Part shown: piece by piece, positions 71-6,171 of the stretch
Position numbering within the stretch: the first letter of the stretch is position 1
Layout: the number at the start of each line of letters is the position of its first letter
Assembly: GCA_964522265.1 (NCBI GenBank)
Contig: CAZFVS010000064.1
Span: 1 to 6,171, forward strand
Length of the DNA: 6,171 nucleotides
Origin: an uncultured Gammaproteobacteria bacterium
GTDB lineage: Bacteria > Patescibacteriota > Microgenomatia > Daviesbacterales > UBA10151
Direction: 5' to 3'
Notes under the pieces: model-generated
The model's input: the letters and a program-made list of their open reading frames with translations, nothing else
What the model was told of the DNA's origin: nothing
Databases searched by the model: none
Program-made: the position numbers and the translations under genes

Positions 71-811
71 TTACTTTGAGAATTTAAAAGTGGCGAGTAT
101 TTTATTGAAATCCTTTTGATAAGAAACATTTAGTTCAACTGTAGAATCAAAACCTGTATTAAATGATATTCTCAAAATATAATCTGGCATTTCCAGATAA
201 ATATCTCTTTTCCCATTACTGGGGGAAGTAAAAATTATTTCTTTGCCCTCTCTTTTATCTATCACAACTGTTTTTGTCTGTACATTATCACCATAATAAC
301 TAAAATCCATATCAGATAGTTTTTTATTAGAGATAGCAATAAAAGAGATGTCTACGCCTTTGCGCAGAACATCACCACCAGCTTGCCCCCCACCTATAAT
401 ACGCTCTATGTCTTTTCCTAAAGAGACGCTTTCAATAGTAGTTTTCGATCCAAGGGTTTCTTTTAACTCATATCCATTAGGATATTTAATTTCATAACCT
501 CTTTGATTATTTGTATATGTTTTCCAATTTCCGGAAGGAACTGGATTTGACTGATTTGCAGTTTCATTATCTTTTGCAGATGAAGGCTGAGCGCTTGAAG
601 CCGCATTAGGCTCGTTAAATTCTTGTGTTATTTTGTAAGTTTTATTGACTGTATAAATTAATCCTCCTATATAAATTACTACTGCAAGAAGAATTACTAT
701 GGATATCCCAAAAATTAAAACTAATGCTGAAAATCCTGCCTGCCTGTCTGCCGACAGGCAAGACCGGCAGGCATGGCCTTTTTGTTTACACTGAGCGAAG
801 TCGAAGTGCAT
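71..811 (-). CDS. Membrane-anchored/secreted hypothetical protein, paralog 1 of a five-member W-x-TY...YP / [ST]FKF array
   Basis: 741-nt ORF (246 aa plus TAA). In order: basic leader MHFDFAQCKQKG; 14 codons encoded by a GC-rich nested palindrome; hydrophobic helix FSALVLIFGISIVILLAVVIYIGGLIY; S/A/N/P-rich linker; globular part opening WKTYTNNQRGYEIKYPNGYE and closing ILATFKFSK-stop. The four other minus-strand ORFs show the same motif order. No family name is asserted. Confidence 0.85.
   Translation of the reverse strand: MHFDFAQCKQKGHACRSCLSADRQAGFSALVLIFGISIVILLAVVIYIGGLIYTVNKTYKITQEFNEPNAASSAQPSSAKDNETANQSNPVPSGNWKTYTNNQRGYEIKYPNGYELKETLGSKTTIESVSLGKDIERIIGGGQAGGDVLRKGVDISFIAISNKKLSDMDFSYYGDNVQTKTVVIDKREGKEIIFTSPSNGKRDIYLEMPDYILRISFNTGFDSTVELNVSYQKDFNKILATFKFSK
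734..778. repeat. Nested GC-rich palindrome lying in frame inside paralog 1 (42 coding nt, 734-775, encoding HACRSCLSADRQAG)
   Basis: Inner hairpin is tgcctgtc-tgcc-gacaggca (741-760; 8-bp perfect stem, 4-nt loop). Outer stem is cctgcc (735-740) paired with ggcagg (766-771), with a 5-nt bulge agacc. The surrounding DNA is AT-rich. Confidence 0.85.
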
Positions 812-816
812 AAATT
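767..816 (-). repeat. Leader module copy A (start codon plus HFDFAQCKQKG codons plus proximal upstream aaattt)
   Basis: Positions 767-807 are identical over 41 nt to 1945-1985. After one mismatch (808 vs 1986), cataaatt is again identical (809-816 vs 1987-1994). The two proteins are otherwise highly diverged. The module contains a tandem hexamer cgaagtcgaagt. Confidence 0.9.
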
Positions 817-817
817 T

Positions 818-834
818 AGCATAGCATATATAAT
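818..834. promoter_or_regulatory. Putative back-to-back -10 elements for paralog 1 (minus) and hicB (plus)
   Basis: On the minus strand, tatgct (818-823) is followed by a 6-nt spacer aaattt and then ATG (811-809). On the plus strand, tataat (829-834) is followed by a 6-nt spacer agttcc and then ATG at 841. Neither gene has a purine-rich SD. The whole intergenic gap is 29 nt. Confidence 0.4.
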
Positions 835-1291: not shown

Positions 1292-1320
1292 TCCTGAGCT
1301 TGTCGAAGGGCTGGAGCGCC
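1291..1320. repeat. Orphan copy of a repeat core related to the paralog leader module
   Basis: atcctgagcttgtcgaagggctggagcgcc resembles the plus-strand reading of the leader module: ctgagcgaagtcgaagtgc versus ctgagcttgtcgaagggc. It is not part of any credible ORF. Confidence 0.55.
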
Positions 1321-1338
1321 AGGTATGTAGATATATAT

Positions 1339-1989
1339 TTACTTTAAGAATTTAAAAGTAGAGAGGATTTTATTGTAAATCTCATGATATTTTTCTTGAT
1401 CTTTAACTGGATAGCCAGCGCTGTAAGGACTAAAACCAACTGAAATATAACTGTTATTAGTTTTTTCAAAGAAAACTACCTCAGAACCCAGTGGAGCAGG
1501 TTCAGAGTCAGTTCTGTAAACCCTCACGCCATTTATCATCTCAGTCTTGTATTTATAACCAGATTTATCTAAATAGCTCTTCACACCTTTGTTACCTTTA
1601 TTAATATATAAATGAAACTCATGAGACTCTTGGCCAATATATAATTTTTTCCCAGAATTTATATAAATAGTACAATCCTTATCTTCAACACAGTCAATTA
1701 ACTCCCAATTCAAAGGATACTTAAGAGAATACCCACCTTTATTTTTATAATCACTCCACCCTGCAGTTTCATCTGCTGTAGATGCCTCGGGTTCTGGGGA
1801 AGTTTGATCAGAGGTAAAAACCGGAAGAGGTGGGGCAGATACAGGGAATTTCGGTTTACTCAAGATAATATATCCGGCAACTCCTCCAGCAATGAAGATC
1901 AAAGCCAAAATAACAGCCACAACTGGCGCAAACCCTGCCTGCCAGCAGGCATGGCCTTTTTGTTTACACTGAGCGAAGTCGAAGTTCAT
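1339..1989 (-). CDS. Membrane-anchored/secreted hypothetical protein, paralog 2
   Basis: 651-nt ORF (216 aa plus TAA). In order: leader MNFDFAQCKQKG; 7 palindrome-encoded codons HACWQAG; helix FAPVVAVILALIFIAGGVAGYIIL; P/S/T/E-rich linker; domain opening WSDYKNKGGYSLKYPLNWE and closing ILSTFKFLK-stop. Confidence 0.87.
   Translation of the reverse strand: MNFDFAQCKQKGHACWQAGFAPVVAVILALIFIAGGVAGYIILSKPKFPVSAPPLPVFTSDQTSPEPEASTADETAGWSDYKNKGGYSLKYPLNWELIDCVEDKDCTIYINSGKKLYIGQESHEFHLYINKGNKGVKSYLDKSGYKYKTEMINGVRVYRTDSEPAPLGSEVVFFEKTNNSYISVGFSPYSAGYPVKDQEKYHEIYNKILSTFKFLK
1933..1956. repeat. GC-rich palindrome in frame in paralog 2 (21 coding nt, 1933-1953)
   Basis: In ccctgcctgccagcaggcatggcc, tgcctgc (1936-1942) pairs with gcaggca (1945-1951). 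Realistically this gives a 6-bp stem with a 4-nt loop. The flanks are identical to the copy at 3218-3241. Confidence 0.85.
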
Positions 1990-2353: not shown

Positions 2354-3253
2354 TTAATCTATACAGATAGGAGGAGTTGGTTGACCGTTTTCAAAAAAGG
2401 TGAGGCATCCATAGATTAACTCATATTCACTGCATTGTCCTATGTTTCCTTGTCCCGTTTTACTAATACATTTGCCCTGACATTGGTCAGAATCTGTACA
2501 CTGCTTACCACCATCCAAAGTTTTTGGGTTGCATATAAGTTCCTCTAACATACCGCGAGGACCCCACTTACCTCCTATTTCTTTACATTGTTGTTCAGTT
2601 AATCTGTTTTTATTATTTAAAAATTTAAATGCAGAAACAAAAGTTTCAAAATCTTTTGGATCTATTGGTTTACCATACATATGTTTTATCCAAGTGATAT
2701 GATAAATTTTTTTATCTTTTGGAATAAAAATATCGTCTTGATTAAACTGTCCTGGAATCTCTGTAGTCCTTTGGGCTTTTATCCCATCAATATTAATATC
2801 GCTAAGCTTGATCCAAGCCATATTTTTAATTTTCGTCAAGTATTGCTTGGTTGATAAATCTTCTGGGTTGTCTATAACTGAGATATAAACCAGATCTGCT
2901 GATTCGCAATTAAAAGGACTGACGCCGCTTGGGCAAGGCTTAACTTTTGGAGATACCACAATCCATGGTTTATCATACCCTTCCCTTTCTTCTTCACCCA
3001 CCTCCCAATCTAAAGGGTGTTTAAAAGTAAATCCTAAATCCTGATTTTTATAAGTTTGCCAATTGTTTTTCTCGTCTTCTCTGCCGGAAATACTAGCAGG
3101 TGAGGGTTTCGGTATAATAACTTTAGAACTCTGAAATCTAATTTGGAATAAATAAAATCCTCCACCCACCAAACCTACCAGAATTATCAAACTTATTATT
3201 AAAATAATCGGCGCAAACCCTGCCTGCCGACTGGCATGGCCTTTTTGCATCAT
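2354..3253 (-). CDS. Membrane-anchored/secreted hypothetical protein, paralog 3, with an extra C-terminal 8-Cys module
   Basis: 900-nt ORF (299 aa plus TAA). It starts MMQKG, then palindrome-encoded HASRQAG, then helix FAPIILIISLIILVGLVGGGFYLF. The domain opens NWQTYKNQDLGFTFKHPLDWE. The family C-terminus FVSAFKFL is followed by 87 further residues containing 8 Cys. Its ATG overlaps the TGA of the upstream paralog (ATGA). Confidence 0.87.
   Translation of the reverse strand: MMQKGHASRQAGFAPIILIISLIILVGLVGGGFYLFQIRFQSSKVIIPKPSPASISGREDEKNNWQTYKNQDLGFTFKHPLDWEVGEEEREGYDKPWIVVSPKVKPCPSGVSPFNCESADLVYISVIDNPEDLSTKQYLTKIKNMAWIKLSDINIDGIKAQRTTEIPGQFNQDDIFIPKDKKIYHITWIKHMYGKPIDPKDFETFVSAFKFLNNKNRLTEQQCKEIGGKWGPRGMLEELICNPKTLDGGKQCTDSDQCQGKCISKTGQGNIGQCSEYELIYGCLTFFENGQPTPPICID
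3218..3241. repeat. GC-rich palindrome in frame in paralog 3 (21 coding nt, 3218-3238)
   Basis: ccctgcctgccgactggcatggcc has the same arms as 1933-1956. Only the central 4 nt differ (cgac vs cagc on the plus strand). Confidence 0.8.
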
Positions 3254-3981
3254 TTGAGGAGTTTGAAACTTGCAAGGATTTGTTCACCAATACTGCTTTC
3301 ATTTGAATCAGTAAACGTCTTAAACAGGAATATTTTTTCTTCTCTTCCAAGCAACACTATTTTAGGTTTTCCCGGTTGATAATAAATCACTGCTGATTTG
3401 GCCAGTTGTCCACTGACTGTGGCTACATCATTAGGAAAAACATGCACATTGGTTGCGGCATCAAAATCACCCCATAAAAAAGGATAGTACCAATAGCGTT
3501 TATACCAACCCTGCTCATCTAAACCGTTCAGATTTTCAAAAACCCAAACAGAAAATGGAGCTGTATTAAAATTATTATCTTTGCCTAAAACTGCTACTGC
3601 CTCCAAAACCTTACCTGGTTCATACCCCACATAACTTGAGAAGTTTTTCCTGAAGTTTCCATTCCCTCTTGTATCAAAATCCGCCTCATTATCTTCTTTG
3701 ACCTCCAGCTCTTTTGGATACCTGAATTCAAATTCTGAATTTTTATCTGTATAAGTTTTTAGCATATCTATAGCAGCAGACGGACTGGGTTTTGGACTGT
3801 TGAAGATTTTTGAGAGGCCAACCGAGGGAGAATCTACCGAGCCTGGAGTCAGGTTCCTGTAAATTACCATTCCTGAGATAACCAAAACTGCAGCAATCAG
3901 CAAAATAATGAGGAGAGCAGAACCTCTTTGTTTGCACTGAGCGGACTTGTGGTGAGCGGAGTCGAACCAACCGAAGTGCAT
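3250..3981 (-). CDS. Membrane-anchored/secreted hypothetical protein, paralog 4 (no palindrome insert)
   Basis: 732-nt ORF (243 aa plus TGA). The expanded leader MHFGWFDSAHHKSAQCKQRG runs directly into helix SALLIILLIAAVLVISGMVIY. The domain opens LKTYTDKNSEFEFRYPKELE and closes ILASFKLLK-stop. Confidence 0.87.
   Translation of the reverse strand: MHFGWFDSAHHKSAQCKQRGSALLIILLIAAVLVISGMVIYRNLTPGSVDSPSVGLSKIFNSPKPSPSAAIDMLKTYTDKNSEFEFRYPKELEVKEDNEADFDTRGNGNFRKNFSSYVGYEPGKVLEAVAVLGKDNNFNTAPFSVWVFENLNGLDEQGWYKRYWYYPFLWGDFDAATNVHVFPNDVATVSGQLAKSAVIYYQPGKPKIVLLGREEKIFLFKTFTDSNESSIGEQILASFKLLK
3922..3981 (-). repeat. Leader module copy D (expanded variant)
   Basis: It has the same ends as copies A and B (aatttATGcacttcg ... 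gctcagtg.aaacaaa.agg.). Internally it carries extra sequence, including a direct repeat tccgctca ... tccgctca with 15-nt periodicity on the coding strand. Confidence 0.75.
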
Positions 3982-3987
3982 AAATTC

Positions 3988-3993
3988 ATAATA
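3988..3993 (-). promoter_or_regulatory. Putative -10 hexamer (tattat) 6 nt upstream of the paralog 4 ATG
   Basis: The minus strand reads tattat-gaattt-ATG, inside the 20-nt gap after the paralog 5 stop. No SD is present. Confidence 0.3.
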
Positions 3994-4001
3994 CCATAAA
4001 G

Positions 4002-4613
4002 TTACGAACCTTGACCAAAGCGGATTTTAGAGATCAGTTCTTCAATTTGAGTGGAAAAATCATCCCTGCTTGATGCAGGAGAGTTATCTGAAGAAACTCT
4101 GTGGGTGATATCCAGCGGCGGTTTCAAAATACACCAATGGTATTTGGTGTAACCTGCGATAGAAGCTTTGGAGCGGATTACTTGAATATCCCCAAGATTG
4201 ACAGTTTCTGTAGAATCCTTCAGACAGGTTGTCACATCCGTTAAAATGGTCATGGGTTTTTGTGCCACTTCACACTTCACGCTTTTTATGTCTGTACTGT
4301 TTGTGGGATCAAGCTCAAAATTTAGAGAATTACCGCATGTTAAAAGGCCCCATTTCTCGGGATAAAAAATTTGGAACCCTGCTCCCCGGTATGTTTTAGT
4401 ACCTGGCATCTTACCATTAGTCTGTAAGGAGGGGGAAGGCGCCAAAGAAGATTTGGCCACAGCAGTAGCCGAGGGTTTTGCCGTGTTTGATTGGTTGCCT
4501 GTTTTTCTATTCTGAAACCCTTTGACAAAATAAAATATAGTCCCGGAAATAATAGCCAAAAGGATCAGCAATACTGACCCTGTAATCAGTAAAACCTTTG
4601 CTCTCTCATCCAT
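4002..4613 (-). CDS. Membrane-anchored/secreted hypothetical protein, paralog 5 (most divergent, lacks the shared leader module)
   Basis: The supplied ORF (to 4631) begins at a GTG. I prefer the in-frame ATG at 4613 (MDERAKVLLITGSVLLILLAIISGTIFYF), because a -10-like taaaat lies within the GTG-extended part. An S/P/A/T linker follows, then KTYRGAGFQIFYPEKWG, and the protein closes LISKIRFGQGS-stop. The start is uncertain by 6 codons. Confidence 0.8.
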   Translation of the reverse strand: MDERAKVLLITGSVLLILLAIISGTIFYFVKGFQNRKTGNQSNTAKPSATAVAKSSLAPSPSLQTNGKMPGTKTYRGAGFQIFYPEKWGLLTCGNSLNFELDPTNSTDIKSVKCEVAQKPMTILTDVTTCLKDSTETVNLGDIQVIRSKASIAGYTKYHWCILKPPLDITHRVSSDNSPASSRDDFSTQIEELISKIRFGQGS

Positions 4614-4616
4614 GAT

Positions 4617-4651
4617 CTGTAATTTTAGCACAAATTGGGTTAAAATTACAG
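4617..4651. promoter_or_regulatory. 11-bp perfect inverted repeat filling the divergent paralog-5/femAB intergenic region, each arm carrying an outward-facing taaaat
   Basis: ctgtaatttta (4617-4627) is the exact reverse complement of taaaattacag (4641-4651), with a 13-nt spacer. On the plus strand, taaaat (4641-4646) is 6 nt before ATG 4653. On the minus strand, taaaat is 8 nt before ATG 4613. Confidence 0.55.
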
Positions 4652-4652
4652 C

Positions 4653-5678
4653 ATGGATTTAAGGAAGATTCTTGACAGCGAAAGGAATGAATACAATCAA
4701 TTGGTAACCCATGTCATACAAAGCTTTGAATGGGGAGAGTTTAGAAAAAGCTTAGGGCTTCCGCTGCTTAGATATGGCCTCTATAAGAACGGCAAATTAA
4801 CCAAAGCCTTTCAACTAACCCTTCACAAAATCCCATTCTTCAATCAGTACGTAGGCTATCTACCCAAAGGCCCTCTCCCCGATAAAGAACTTGCCCAAGC
4901 CTTAGAACAAATTCAACATTATGTTTTTACGTCTGAAGGGAAAAAGCTTTGCTTCATTAAACTTGAGCCGAATATTGAAGTTACCACATCTTTATTTTCG
5001 GTACATCCTAAATTTTTGCCATCTCCAAAACCTCTTTTCACCAAGTACAACTTCCTGATCGATTTAAAACAATCCGAGAAAAAGCTTTTAGAAAATATGC
5101 ATCCAAAAACCAGATATAATATAAAATTGGCGCAAAAAAAAGGCGTGGTAGTTGAAGAAAGGACTGATGATAAAGCCTTTAAAGTTTACCTGAAACTCTA
5201 TTTTGATACCACCAAAAGACAACATTTTTTAGGGCATGATGAAAATTACCATTATCAGGTCTGGCGAAATTTGAGAGATGCCGGTATGGCCAGGCTGCTG
5301 ATTGGATATTATAAAAAGAGCCCGTTATCTGCATGGATGCTGATTAATTTTAAAGATACCATTTATTATCCGTATGGCGGTTCTGCAACCAAACACAAAG
5401 AGGTTATGGCTTCAAACTTAGTGGCATGGGAAGCAATTAGGTTGGGAAAAAGGTTAGGATGTAAAAAGTTCGATATGTGGGGCGCTGCTAACTCTTCCAA
5501 TCCTAACATCAATGATCAGTATTTTGGTTTCCATACTTTTAAAAAGGGGTACGGAGGAAAATTAGTAGAATATATCGGCACATACGATCTGATTTTCAAT
5601 AACCCCTTGTATTTTATATTTACAACAATAGACAGGCTAACATCACTAAAAGTATTCCTCTTGAGATTGCTTAGATAA
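4653..5678 (+). CDS. FemAB-family peptidoglycan interpeptide-bridge aminoacyltransferase (FemX / lipid II:glycine glycyltransferase-like)
   Basis: 341-aa ORF. The motif order is typical of the FemAB family: QSFEWGEFRKSLG near the N-terminus; HPKTRYNIKLAQKKGV; YYPYGGSATKHKEVMASNLVAWEAIRLGKRLGCKKFDMWG; FGFHTFKKGYGG. Confidence 0.88.
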   Translation: MDLRKILDSERNEYNQLVTHVIQSFEWGEFRKSLGLPLLRYGLYKNGKLTKAFQLTLHKIPFFNQYVGYLPKGPLPDKELAQALEQIQHYVFTSEGKKLCFIKLEPNIEVTTSLFSVHPKFLPSPKPLFTKYNFLIDLKQSEKKLLENMHPKTRYNIKLAQKKGVVVEERTDDKAFKVYLKLYFDTTKRQHFLGHDENYHYQVWRNLRDAGMARLLIGYYKKSPLSAWMLINFKDTIYYPYGGSATKHKEVMASNLVAWEAIRLGKRLGCKKFDMWGAANSSNPNINDQYFGFHTFKKGYGGKLVEYIGTYDLIFNNPLYFIFTTIDRLTSLKVFLLRLLR

Positions 5679-6171
5679 TGGACCTTTTACTTGTTTCAAC
5701 CATTTCAACAGTCGCTATCTGCTTACTCGGTCTTTCCTGGTTTGCCGGATCTGATGCCCCATTTGTGGCAACTAAATTGGATAACATTAAAGATGTTCTA
5801 AGATCAGCCGGATGCGGAAAAAACAGGGTGTTTTATGAGTTAGGCTCCGGGGATGGCAGGGTTGTGATCGAGGCCGCAAAGCTGGGCGCACAGGCAAATG
5901 GCGTAGAACAATCCTGGATCAGAGTGTTGTATTCAAGGTTTAAAGCTTGGCAGTTAGGCTTAGAAGATGCACATTTCTATCATGGCAATATTTTTGATAA
6001 AAACTACTTTCCTGCAGACATCATCTATATCTATCTTCTTTCAAAAGCAGTCCAGAGATTGGAGCAAAAACTAAAAAAAGAGCTGAAAAAAAATTCCGTA
6101 GTTATCACTCAAACTTATCATTTTAAAAACTGGAAACCATATAAAAAAATAGGTAATTTTTGGTTTTACCA
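5678..6171 (+). CDS. Membrane-anchored class I SAM-dependent methyltransferase (3' partial, runs off the window)
   Basis: Absent from the track because there is no stop in the window. I read the frame through with no stop codon. The ATG at 5678 overlaps the femAB TAA (TAATG). It has an N-terminal helix LLLVSTISTVAICLLGLSWF, then APFVAT, then the SAM motif I YELGSGDGRVVIEAAKLG, then GVEQS...SR..AW, and a late LEQKLKKEL...F.NWKP. Confidence 0.8.
   Translation, partial: MDLLLVSTISTVAICLLGLSWFAGSDAPFVATKLDNIKDVLRSAGCGKNRVFYELGSGDGRVVIEAAKLGAQANGVEQSWIRVLYSRFKAWQLGLEDAHFYHGNIFDKNYFPADIIYIYLLSKAVQRLEQKLKKELKKNSVVITQTYHFKNWKPYKKIGNFWFY

Follow-up and report, generated by a model that had tools for sequence, protein, structure and literature searches.

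Two diverged paralogs in a Daviesbacterales contig share a near-identical 5' block that is probably a native gene start carrying two kinds of in-frame hairpin repeats

The window, by which we mean the whole stretch of DNA analyzed here (6,171 nucleotides), is an entire 6.2-kb contig with five paralogs, numbered 1 to 5 below. On the minus strand, paralogs 1 and 2 (open reading frames 71-811 and 1339-1989) share a block that spans aatttATG and the codons for (H/N)FDFAQCKQKGHA. Pairwise comparison of 767-816 with 1945-1994 confirmed the statement of the preliminary description that 49 of 50 bases are identical in otherwise diverged genes, and identity is perfect over 41 nt, all synonymous positions included. 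Ungapped similarity extends to 68 nt at 90% (764-831 versus 1942-2009), and this match is among the longest direct repeats of the window (family D2). The uneven divergence claimed at the same time was borne out by a sliding-window check, in which nucleotide identity was not comparable along the full gene length, being 0.3 to 0.6 in the body of the genes but reaching 1.0 and 0.9 at their 5' and 3' ends, respectively, with a value of 0.33 both at 35 nt into the gene and at ∼40 nt upstream. Overall, the two proteins share 41% amino acid identity. The 3' ends of paralogs 1 and 2 are thus conserved as well, a feature that had been overlooked in the preliminary description.

The block is a mosaic of four juxtaposed pieces, namely, a native AATTT-ATG, a short repeat unit termed X, the native codons CAAAAAGG, and the first 10 nt of a second repeat unit termed Y (Table 1).

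Table 1. Coordinates of repeat units and native gene-start elements in the window
Feature	Position	Strand	Description
42-nt Y, paralog 1	735-776	-	Y with second 21-nt Y-like hairpin in its loop
Native codons, paralog 1	777-784	-	CAAAAAGG (Q-K-G), between X and Y
X unit, paralog 1	785-808	-	CAC-TTCGACTTCGCTCA-GTG-TAAA; covariance-model match 39.7 bits, E 1e-8
Native start, paralog 1	809-823	-	-10-like TATGCT (818-823), AAATTT (6 nt), ATG (809-811)
Orphan unit, 13-nt-loop sister family	1293-1309	+	CC-TGAGCTTGTCGAA-GG, reverse complement of CC-TTCGACAAGCTCA-GG
Y unit, paralog 2	1934-1954	-	21-nt GC-rich palindrome CCATGCCTGCTGGCAGGCAGG, between AAAGG and GTTT
X unit, paralog 2	1963-1986	-	AAC-TTCGACTTCGCTCA-GTG-TAAA; covariance-model match 35.6 bits
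Y unit, paralog 3	3219-3239	-	CCATGCCAGTCGGCAGGCAGG, codes for HASRQAG; no X; repeat family D1
48-nt composite, paralog 4	3931-3978	-	Inner X nested in loop of outer X

The X unit of paralog 1, built of a 3-bp stem enclosing a 14-nt loop and followed by a 4-nt tail, follows the ATG immediately and in frame, coding for HFDFAQCK. All 24 of its nucleotides are identical to positions 5528-5551 of a phage-like contig (L013), where they lie at the start of a phage structural gene and are read in a different frame (TSTSLSV). The sole mismatch of the block, C to A in paralog 2, breaks the outermost stem pair and replaces H with N. The expanded version reported for paralog 4 was found as a 48-nt composite coding for HFGWFDSAHHKSAQCK, in which an inner unit (3946-3969, TGG-TTCGACTCCGCTCA-CCA-CAAG; covariance-model match of 37.3 bits) interrupts an outer one (3970-3978 plus 3931-3945, CAC-TTCGGT/TCCGCTCA-GTG-CAAA). 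The X hairpin folds weakly (-2.3 kcal/mol, z = -0.4), no better than shuffled sequence, and any structural role would need a protein partner or a single-stranded context.

The Y unit of paralog 2 codes for HACWQAG and folds at -10.1 kcal/mol, while the longer Y of paralog 1 codes for HACRSCLSADRQAG and folds at -28.3 kcal/mol (z = -4.9); removal of 21 nt (CGGTCTTGCCTGTCGGCAGAC) from the latter leaves CCATGCCTGCAGGCAGGCAGG, with one mismatch to the Y of paralog 2. The part of the block that had been noticed in paralog 3 is its Y unit, and the start of this gene (ATGATGCAAAAAGG) overlaps the stop codon of paralog 4; paralog 5, as already described, has no part of the block. The related orphan core seen earlier was also recovered, as an intergenic unit of a sister family with a 13-nt loop, flanked by the relic of a 3D-domain gene on one side and by the stop of paralog 2 on the other.

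The native codons CAAAAAGG recur at 1955-1962 in paralog 2 and at 3240-3247 in paralog 3, and paralog 4 has CAAAGAGG at 3923-3930. Upstream of the ATG, a -10-like TATTAT occurs in paralog 2 (1996-2001) and in paralog 4 (3988-3993); for paralog 4, a consensus scan gave the promoter TGGTCA-18-TATTAT with an extended TG, while the hexamers of paralogs 1 and 2 were read by eye. Judged from this spacing, paralogs 1, 2, and 4 may have leaderless starts.

Orthologs in related Daviesbacteria-like contigs read ATG-CAAAAAGG-GTTT, with neither X nor Y, and CAAAAAGG directly follows the ATG in the insert-free genes L003 10001, L005 5373, and L005 4623. The filled site of paralog 2 (ATG+X+CAAAAAGG+Y+GTTTGCGCCAGTT) corresponds to ATGCAAAAAGG+GTTTTCACCAGTC in its ortholog L003 10001, whose start, ATGCAAAAAGGG, is without both the 24 nt of X and Y. 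Likewise, the filled site of paralog 4 (ATG+48 nt+CAAAGAGG) corresponds to ATGCAAAGAGG in the ortholog L005 4623, which is 58% identical to it and whose start, aaatttATGCAAAGAGG, is missing the whole 48 nt. (The Logan gene call for the L005 ortholog begins at MIAGG.) The insert size is exact, since inserts between ATG and CAA measure 24 or 48 nt and those after AAAGG measure 21 or 42 nt, and no target duplication was found in the filled and empty site pairs of paralogs 2 and 4. Empty orthologous sites read aa(a/t)ttt/aataa-ATG-CAAA(A/G)AGG and already have the flank, the ATG, and QKG, which speaks against the suggestion in the preliminary description that a mobile module donates the -10-proximal flank, ATG, and basic leader. 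Moreover, an X-like unit in the opposite orientation lies within a ∼21-amino-acid insertion in a G5/3D protein of L002 and L005, and this insertion is missing from the L003 ortholog; a covariance-model search of the related 16-kb locus L003/L004 found no unit.

The suspicion that the block belongs to a dispersed repeat family was supported. A first DNA scan with X plus the QKG codons as the query returned at least one relevant match, and pattern scans found the X core in 52 viral contigs and in at least 120 metagenome contigs. X also occurs on plasmids of cultured bacteria, both cyanobacterial (Nostoc, Anabaena, Planktothrix, and Microcystis) and from Sphingomonas and Trichlorobacter, and the host GC content ranges from 31 to 67%; it was essentially absent from cultured phages and Escherichia coli. 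The pattern with which the family sets were collected (TTCGACTYCGCTCANNNYAAR for the viral contigs) held the loop and tail fixed and left the stem positions free, and only the stem statistics are unbiased. Results revealed perfect 3-bp stems in 35 of 47 unique viral units, against 1/64 expected by chance, and 89.4% of stem cells were paired, compared with 50.4% in shuffles (0 of 500 as high) and 25 to 41% in slid controls. Ten stem types occur in the family, and in an independent metagenome set (GC content of 31 to 66%), stems were perfect in 73 of the 120 unique units listed. The nucleotide-level constraint that had been proposed earlier can accordingly be specified as a covarying stem around the loop, the loop itself being held fixed by the search pattern. 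The tail reads YAAR, mostly CAAG or TAAA, and multicopy contigs yielded 56 covariance-model matches in 16 loci.

In addition, CTTCGACAAGCTCAG of the sister family was detected in at least 120 viral contigs, with the next two flanking pairs complementary in 76 of the 123 copies listed versus 1/16 by chance, and the Y-family core was detected in 57 viral contigs, often in several copies per contig and once in the variable arm of a tRNA-Met gene. The peptides FDFAQ.K, LSEVEG, and PELVEG, which the preliminary description had linked to hypothetical proteins, are reading frames of X and of the 13-nt-loop sister family. Rfam gave no match at an E value of ≤1 in the window and, in six multicopy loci, matched rRNA, tRNA, and a group I intron only, never the units. 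Literature searches for the DNA cores and derived peptides returned no match, nor did a protein search with the 43-amino-acid leader only, a result of little weight since the database searched does contain the full protein in identical form. An exact lookup of the FemAB protein, meant to extend the contig, found no entry.

Nesting between loop positions ∼7 and 8 was observed in window paralog 4, L002, L057, L058 (triple, twice), and the Nostoc plasmid L183. Outer stems of ≥7 bp, with units at the tips of larger hairpins, were found in 13 of 107 cases versus 0.4 expected. Only 34% of the units lie deep inside long open reading frames, compared with 68% of random positions, while 32% lie ≤25 nt from a gene start (versus 10%) and 34% lie equally near a stop (versus 11%). 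Units lie in either orientation, and their locations include intergenic regions, tRNA genes, the sequence downstream of a 5S rRNA gene, and the interior of other hairpins, some beside heptamer repeats; no conserved target sequence or junction consensus was found among their flanks. Several other candidates were considered and rejected. As for target-site duplication, a match between the stem and the triplet downstream is confined to GC-rich CAAG-CCC contexts and is not seen in the window, L039, L013, or L010. A general extension of the stem past the tail is not seen, pairing there being only 41.7% versus 35.5%; larger hairpins enclose a subset of the units. Start-codon-specific function was dismissed on the equal enrichment at stops. 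The long-range complementary end pairs that might suggest the joined ends of a cargo-bearing element are separate complete units. For an origin of GGTTCGACTCC from a tRNA 3' end or T arm, the distance to CCA does not fit, and neither ARAGORN nor Rfam gave a match; a hammerhead, preQ1, or other riboswitch or ribozyme found no Rfam match.

Considering these findings, we think it probable that the block is the native start of a membrane-anchored protein family of a candidate phyla radiation (CPR) bacterium into which two kinds of in-frame hairpin repeats were inserted. The native part would comprise the -10 hexamer, 6 nt, ATG, CAAAAAGG (Q-K-G), F-A-P, and a transmembrane helix. X would be the 24 nt between ATG and CAA, with a variable 3-bp stem, a 14-nt loop (TTCGACTYCGCTCA), and an unpaired YAAR tail, and Y would be the 21-nt GC-rich palindrome between AAAGG and GTTT. 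Both would be translated, the short cytoplasmic tail before the membrane anchor growing by 8 and 7 residues, and they would have survived in this N-terminal tail because the position is permissive. The 98% identity over 50 nt would then result from X and Y being near their family consensus, from the conserved ATG context and QKG codons, and from the use of the same two positions. The units themselves would be nonautonomous mobile DNA, and an enzyme acting in trans would copy them as single-stranded hairpins; an HUH tyrosine transposase-like protein (IS200/IS605/RAYT type) is a candidate for this enzyme, as may be another kind of protein. The units appear to favor single-stranded loops, palindrome centers, and the ATG/CAAA site.

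A wider proposal, possible although we hold it only tentatively, is that X, the 13-nt-loop sister family, and Y are cross-phylum "nano-transposons" of 21 to 24 nt, in which the invariant loop would be the recognition site of a horizontally spreading enzyme and this enzyme would insert the single-stranded hairpins wherever loops are exposed, for example, in older copies, in the arms of tRNAs, and in the DNA melted at leaderless gene starts. Such units would survive in compact CPR and phage genomes mainly by translation into tolerant protein termini. If true, nano-transposons would be a general, unrecognized source of N- and C-terminal extensions in the "hypothetical proteins" of uncultivated bacteria.

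We consider it unlikely that the 50-nt tract was copied by recent gene conversion or short-patch recombination of paralog 5' ends, its repeat nature being incidental, even though several observations favor this reading. Paralogs 1 and 2 have the same X stem (CAC/GTG), tail (TAAA), and Y in the same positions, with 41 nt perfect, and window paralog 4 shares with the paralog 2 ortholog of L002 the same nested 48 nt, the inner units being identical at 24 of 24 positions. Furthermore, genomes that share 68% identity in their FemAB genes are 87 to 96% identical over the 5' 230 nt of paralog 2, so recombination does act on these 5' ends, and the presence of X at exactly one site in three paralogs is explained by conversion or common descent at least as easily as by three independent insertions. 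However, identity stops at the unit edges plus the 8-nt start context, which empty sites elsewhere share; the flanks diverge at once; and Y differs between paralogs 1 and 2, being 42 nt with a nested copy in one and 21 nt in the other. Since an unrelated phage-like contig carries an X identical at all 24 positions, such identity is uninformative on recent exchange, and gene conversion is unnecessary. An assembly or chimera artifact of a short metagenomic contig is hardly credible: the window is a whole contig and repeats can mislead assemblers, but this architecture was recovered again from other samples that had been assembled independently (the NCBI MAG L002 and, for four runs, the Logan assemblies L005 to L008), all inserts keep the reading frame, and the family is present in hundreds of unrelated contigs.

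It is also improbable, in our estimation, that the hairpins act in cis on the mRNA, as co-opted repeats whose structures, X at +4 and Y at +36 of a leaderless transcript, would adjust the initiation of translation or shield the 5' end. Because the -10 hexamer lies 6 nt before the ATG in paralogs 1, 2, and 4, the hairpins would sit at the extreme 5' end of the transcript; the Y hairpin is stable (-10 to -28 kcal/mol), units are ∼3-fold enriched near gene starts, and in several phage-like contigs, a reverse-oriented unit abuts the ATG and puts GGAG or GAAG 7 nt upstream. Yet enrichment is equal at stop codons, units are found in either orientation and also in tRNA genes, behind a 5S rRNA gene, and within other hairpins, the orthologs work without them, and X alone folds no better than shuffled sequence. 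Selection on the peptide, as a functional N-terminal sorting or modification signal like FDFAQCKQKGHAC, has very little to recommend it. In its favor, the block is read in frame, belongs to the cytoplasmic tail ahead of the membrane anchor, and encodes Cys and Lys; against this, all synonymous positions of the 41-nt stretch are identical, the peptide is missing from orthologs and paralogs (MQKGF... in L003 and L005; paralog 5), the same 24 nt occur in another frame in L013, in reverse orientation, and between genes, and the stem covariation is at the nucleotide level.

To our knowledge, it has been unclear how repeats of 21 to 27 nt can behave as mobile DNA ever since they were first reported from cyanobacteria, and we know of no enzyme or intermediate. 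The window and its relatives offer natural pairs of filled and empty sites together with inserts of exact size, nested copies, and a sharp consensus (3-bp covarying stem, recurrent 14-nt loop, and 4-nt tail), and the question of how they move thus becomes testable by phylogenetic profiling and by biochemistry on 24-mers. Moreover, the units account for recurring peptides in hypothetical proteins (FDFAQGK, RLRSGQ, LSEVEG, PERSRRV, and ACRQAG), mislead gene callers on start sites, as in the Logan call for the L005 ortholog, and can mimic gene conversion or conserved leaders.

Among known elements, REP/REPIN sequences, the small dispersed repeats (SDRs) of cyanobacteria, and Rickettsia palindromic elements (RPEs) come closest. 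The SDRs of heterocyst-forming cyanobacteria are reportedly dispersed units of 21 to 27 nt, some of them hairpins, and are said to lie within one another as well as within tandem heptamer repeats and palindromes, to vary in presence between close relatives, and to be mobilized by an unknown mechanism. We know of no description of their in-frame translation into protein N termini. By this description, rather than by the consensus sequences of SDR1 to SDR8, X and Y resemble SDRs in size (24 and 21 nt) and in dispersal over hundreds of contigs with multicopy loci, as well as in nesting, location at palindrome apices, heptamer flanks, and copies on Nostoc and Anabaena plasmids, one of them nested. 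According to other papers, SDRs are possibly mobile and ∼20 nt long, HIP1, a palindrome, is an insertion site of SDR5, and a search of HIP1-rich cyanobacteria outside the Nostocaceae did not find SDRs or SDR-like repeats. In contrast, no case of HIP1 as an insertion target was found for X, and the X family also occurs in Daviesbacteria-like CPR genomes, phage-like contigs, and plasmids of Sphingomonas, Trichlorobacter, Planktothrix, and Microcystis.

REPs are imperfect palindromes that fold into GC-rich stem-loops of 20 to 40 nt, with a linked RAYT or IS200-type transposase gene in the same genome, and in REPINs an inverted doublet is the replicating unit. The stems of REPs are long and GC rich, their loops are short and variable, and they carry GTAG/CGTC tags; many families are species specific, and some insert into palindromes (Di Nocera 2013). 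X shares with REPs and REPINs the short extragenic stem-loop, a conserved unpaired tetranucleotide at one end, the lack of target duplication, and intergenic enrichment, and inverted doublets ∼60 nt apart, as in REPINs, occur in Sphingomonas parapaucimobilis (L182, 826/889 and 3956/4014), whereas none were seen in the window or in most contigs, where single and nested units dominate. X differs from REPs in its variable 3- to 4-bp stem, its loop of 12 to 14 nt recurring across phyla, and its YAAR tail (CTTG/TTTA on the other strand); Y is a true GC-rich palindrome (-10.1 kcal/mol), while the X stem is short (-2.3 kcal/mol). No GTAG/CGTC tag is part of a unit, the GTAG of L039 lying on an outer palindrome, and tblastn with two Y1-transposase queries, an IS200 TnpA and an E. 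coli RAYT, over 2.8 Mb of unit-bearing loci gave no match and hence no RAYT near units, which is a weak test.

MITEs have terminal inverted repeats matching an IS element, cause target-site duplication, and measure 70 to 300 bp; X, at 24 nt, shows no duplication, junction consensus, or cargo-bearing end pairs. RPEs, which are 100 to 150 bp long and restricted to Rickettsia, are reportedly selfish palindromic repeats that lie in frame in protein genes and are translated at permissive positions. X and Y are likewise translated, in-frame palindromic inserts, but they measure 24 and 21 nt and occur in many phyla. Finally, the GC clusters of yeast mitochondria are GC-rich palindromic mobile elements of 30 to 50 nt in AT-rich organelle genomes, where they lie between genes, within rRNA genes, and at times in frame inside coding sequence and tend to insert into one another; X and Y are like them in being short GC-rich palindromes with mutual insertion and differ from these eukaryotic organelle elements in host, sequence, and length.

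The near-identity of the 5' ends of paralogs 1 and 2, two of five related minus-strand genes, was shown to consist of two near-consensus repeat units lying at the same two sites of a conserved native start, namely, X, a 24-nt hairpin unit after the ATG, and Y, a 21-nt GC-rich palindrome further into the gene. Positions 767-816 and 1945-1994 agree at 49 of 50 bases, similarity continues without gaps over 68 nt at 90%, and the two proteins are 41% identical. Because sliding-window nucleotide identity was 0.3 to 0.6 in the gene bodies but reached 1.0 over the 5' end and 0.9 over the 3' end, the uneven divergence noted in the preliminary description is real; comparable identity over the full gene was looked for in the same windows and was not found. 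In each of the five paralogs, a short N-terminal tail precedes a single transmembrane helix, after which come a low-complexity linker and a C-terminal domain usually ending in a motif like ILSTFKF; paralog 3 has a weak PsbP_2 match.

The composition of this block was resolved by comparing filled and empty start sites. The window is a complete contig of 6,171 nt, and its relatives, found by a DNA scan and protein look-ups, comprise a Candidatus Daviesbacteria MAG (L002) and Logan assemblies from other samples (L003/L004 and L005-L008). L005 shares the gene order of the window (FemAB, methyltransferase, and then the paralog array), the FemAB genes sharing 66% protein and 68% DNA identity. The L003 ortholog of paralog 2 starts with aataaATGCAAAAAGGGTTTTCACCAGTC, encoding MQKGFSPVV, and the L005 ortholog of paralog 4 (58% identical) starts with aaatttATGCAAAGAGGTTCTGCC, encoding MQRGSAP. 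Relative to these insert-free orthologs, the window genes carry extra DNA at two exact places. One, between ATG and CAA, holds X, which is 24 nt long in paralogs 1 and 2 and 48 nt long in paralog 4; the other, between AAAGG and (G/A)TTT, holds Y, which measures 21 nt in paralogs 2 and 3 and 42 nt in paralog 1. Since the aatttATG flank and the codons CAAAAAGG are present in insert-free genes, they are native, which contradicts the earlier proposal that a repeat donates the promoter-proximal flank and ATG; the 50-nt block therefore comprises, in order, native start (8 nt), X (24 nt), native codons (8 nt), and the opening 10 nt of Y. Across 38.5 kb of window-related loci, a covariance model placed units solely at the starts of paralogs and within the 3D gene, with none found in L003/L004. 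The G5/3D protein of L002 and L005 has an insertion of ∼21 amino acids, absent from L003, which contains an opposite-orientation X-like unit inside a 9-bp outer inverted repeat.

Coordinates of features in the window and in loci gathered by the scans
Contig	Feature	Position	Strand
Window	Paralog 1	71-811	minus
Window	Paralog 2	1339-1989	minus
Window	Paralog 3	2354-3253	minus
Window	Paralog 4	3250-3981	minus
Window	Paralog 5	4002-4613	minus
Window	3' ends of paralogs 1 and 2 plus ∼16 nt past the stop, 82-90% identical	56-121 and 1324-1389	
Window	Reading frame IDIYLL-stop	58-78	
Window	hicB/hicA toxin-antitoxin pair	841-1056 and 1049-1219	
Window	Relic C-terminus of G5/3D-domain gene (DDARTAGWQAHFVDIYLL, then stop), directly after hicB/hicA	1219-1275	
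Window	Orphan core	1293-1309	
Window	Start regions with -10-like hexamers and no Shine-Dalgarno sequence	812-840, 1990-2001, 3982-3993, 4632-4652	
Window	17-nt inverted repeat between divergent paralog 5 and femAB starts	4617-4633 / 4635-4651	
L002	GC-rich in-frame inserts in helicase ORF	4703-4824 and 5070-5094	
L005 (also L006-L008)	In-frame TAG in transmembrane helix of paralog 2 ortholog	6110-6120	
L013	Copy identical to window X (24/24)	5528-5551	
L063	Four head-to-tail X units, 27-nt period	4264-4368	
L109	Three head-to-tail X units, 24-nt period	1857-1928	
L182	Inverted doublets ∼60 nt apart, intergenic	826-912 and 3956-4037	
L223	Y palindrome in 92-nt tRNA-Met gene	2239-2330	
L235	Y palindrome in D-arm-like sequence	about 500-560	

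In the stretch that paralogs 1 and 2 share at their 3' ends, the tail of the 3D gene is present as a degenerate copy, so the ancestral duplicated segment was a 3D tail plus one paralog. In L002, L003, and L005, the 3D gene is intact and convergent with the paralog 2 ortholog, versus a relic in the window; hence, the hicB/hicA cassette replaced most of the 3D gene here. The ATG of paralog 3 overlaps the stop of paralog 4.

X has the sequence CAC-TTCGACTTCGCTCA-GTG-TAAA. A scan of viral contigs (which may include mis-binned cellular DNA) with its core recovered 19 loci (GC, 34-67%), in nearly all of which the unconstrained 5' triplet complements the 3' triplet. A second scan with TTCGACTYCGCTCANNNYAAR, leaving the stem positions free, yielded 52 loci and 47 unique units, 35 of which had perfect 3-bp Watson-Crick stems (1/64 expected by chance), with ten different stems. 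In the alignment, 89.4% of stem cells were paired, compared with 50.4% in shuffles (0/500 reaching the observed value) and 25-41% in slid controls, and double-sided changes were present in all three stem pairs. The same pattern found at least 120 unique units in metagenomes (GC, 31-66%); among the 120 listed, 73 had perfect stems and 23 more formed a CCC...GGA subfamily, the stem statistics being the only unbiased part of sets gathered with fixed loop and tail. X is therefore built from a covarying stem of 3 bp, an additional invariant T:A closing pair, a 14-nt loop that was held fixed in the search pattern, and an unpaired YAAR tail; variant-loop copies, e.g., TTCGGCTACGCTCA, had paired stems too. 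As free nucleic acid X is barely stable (-2.3 kcal/mol), and no matching family was found in Rfam. Its core occurs on plasmids of cultured Planktothrix, Anabaena, Nostoc, Microcystis, Sphingomonas parapaucimobilis, and Trichlorobacter lovleyi and is essentially absent from cultured GenBank phages and 5,426 E. coli genomes. In one metagenome subfamily (L146, L136, L153, L159, L164, L119, L152, L132, and L120), the unit caps a longer covarying hairpin, GTCA-stem-(C/T)CC-loop-GGR-TAAA-CTCC-stem', suggesting either a composite element that spreads itself or repeated insertion into another hairpin-repeat family.

The units also behave like insertions. The expanded version in paralog 4 parses as CAC-TTCGGT / TGG-TTCGACTCCGCTCA-CCA-CAAG / TCCGCTCA-GTG-CAAA, i.e., a complete 24-nt unit within the loop of another, and L002 has the same arrangement. 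Further nesting was double in L057, triple at two sites in L058, and single on a Nostoc flagelliforme plasmid, every insert lying at about loop position 7|8 with equal numbers of left and right halves. An outer hairpin of at least 7 bp with a unit at its apex accompanied 13 of 107 perfect-stem units (0.4 expected), and one X unit occupies the exact centre of a 14-bp palindrome; neither target duplication around units nor a junction consensus at their edges was found. Units lie in gene interiors in 34% of cases versus 68% for random positions and are about threefold enriched near both starts and stops, which is the pattern expected of insertions filtered by selection. The identical copy in L013 lies where a phage structural gene begins and is read in a different frame. 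Some contigs contain many copies, in tandem arrays or inverted doublets. The array in L063 is directly 3' of a 5S rRNA gene; this contig measures 446 kb, and its 23S rRNA contains a group I intron. The S. parapaucimobilis units (L182) have a different tail, TGAA, and one copy, CAC-TGAGCGAAGTCGAA-GTG-CAT, has the same 23 nt as window positions 789-811.

Y folds at -10.1 kcal/mol. The 42-nt form in paralog 1, in which the loop of Y holds a second, Y-like hairpin of 21 nt, folds at -28.3 kcal/mol (z = -4.9). Among viral contigs, 57 contained the Y core, TGCCTGCNGGCAGGCRGG, mostly in the form of a perfect 20-nt palindrome, CCTGCCTGCCGGCAGGCAGG; loci often held multiple copies, set between short tandem repeats. 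In L223, this palindrome occupies the variable arm of a tRNA-Met gene still recognized by ARAGORN; in L235, it lies between GGTAGCTCAGTTGGTA and GAGCG, where ARAGORN called no tRNA. The orphan, an isolated related core, is a member of a sister family whose loop is 13 nt long (TTCGACAAGCTCA) and which is even commoner (at least 120 viral contigs); among the copies listed, 76 of 123 had two further complementary pairs, versus 1/16 by chance. The peptide strings that the first reading had linked to proteins of other assemblies proved to be reading frames of X and sister-family units. In L002, a UvrD/PcrA-like helicase ORF has in-frame inserts (peptides ILSDRRESNE and VIASGAKQ) that look like other hairpin-repeat families.

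The units would be translated, with the ATG as native start, and the cytoplasmic tail ahead of the anchor would tolerate 8 + 7 added residues. A -10 hexamer lies 6 nt upstream of the ATG in paralogs 1, 2, and 4, a spacing that suggests leaderless mRNAs; with hexamers likewise placed at hicB (TATAAT-agttcc-ATG) and femAB (TAAAAT-tacagc-ATG) and no Shine-Dalgarno sequence, transcription of all five looks leaderless. Units in paralogs 1, 2, and 4 may represent independent hits at a hot spot, or the inserts may have come to be shared through short-patch recombination. Judging from sequence identities, recombination certainly acts on the paralog 2 region, because its 5' 230 nt (1700-1962; anchor helix and Pro-rich linker) are 87-96% identical to L002 and 80-89% to L003, versus about 40% for the C-terminal domains and a FemAB baseline of 68%; paralog 2 thus appears to be a conserved anchor module joined to swapped domains. 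Owing to the in-frame TAG in its orthologs in L005-L008 (TTG in L002), the gene caller begins the protein at MIAGG (P0003), and these may be pseudogenes or strain variants.

As for mobilization, we infer that the units are non-autonomous mobile DNA and that an enzyme provided in trans would act on them as single-stranded hairpins. Three features are reminiscent of HUH-type chemistry (IS200/IS605, RAYT): units favour loops and palindrome centres, carry an unpaired tetranucleotide, and leave no target duplication. A weak test, tblastn with two Y1-transposase queries against 2.8 Mb of unit-bearing loci, found no such enzyme. REP/REPIN elements share the tag and stem-loop architecture of X, some REP families insert into palindromes, and REPINs form inverted doublets, as do the S. 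parapaucimobilis units, but they differ in tag, stem length (that of X is far shorter), loop conservation, and host range. In-frame insertion into genes is also seen in Rickettsia palindromic elements, but these measure 100-150 bp. The closest described elements would be the cyanobacterial small dispersed repeats (SDR) of Elhai et al. 2008, which are reportedly 21-27 nt long, lie within one another and within heptamer repeats and palindromes, and have no known mechanism. Papers that cite them give their size, possible mobility, and link to HIP1 and report no such repeats from HIP1-rich cyanobacteria beyond the Nostocaceae. X and Y are thus assigned to the very small hairpin repeats that work like SDR or REP elements, rather than to a named family.
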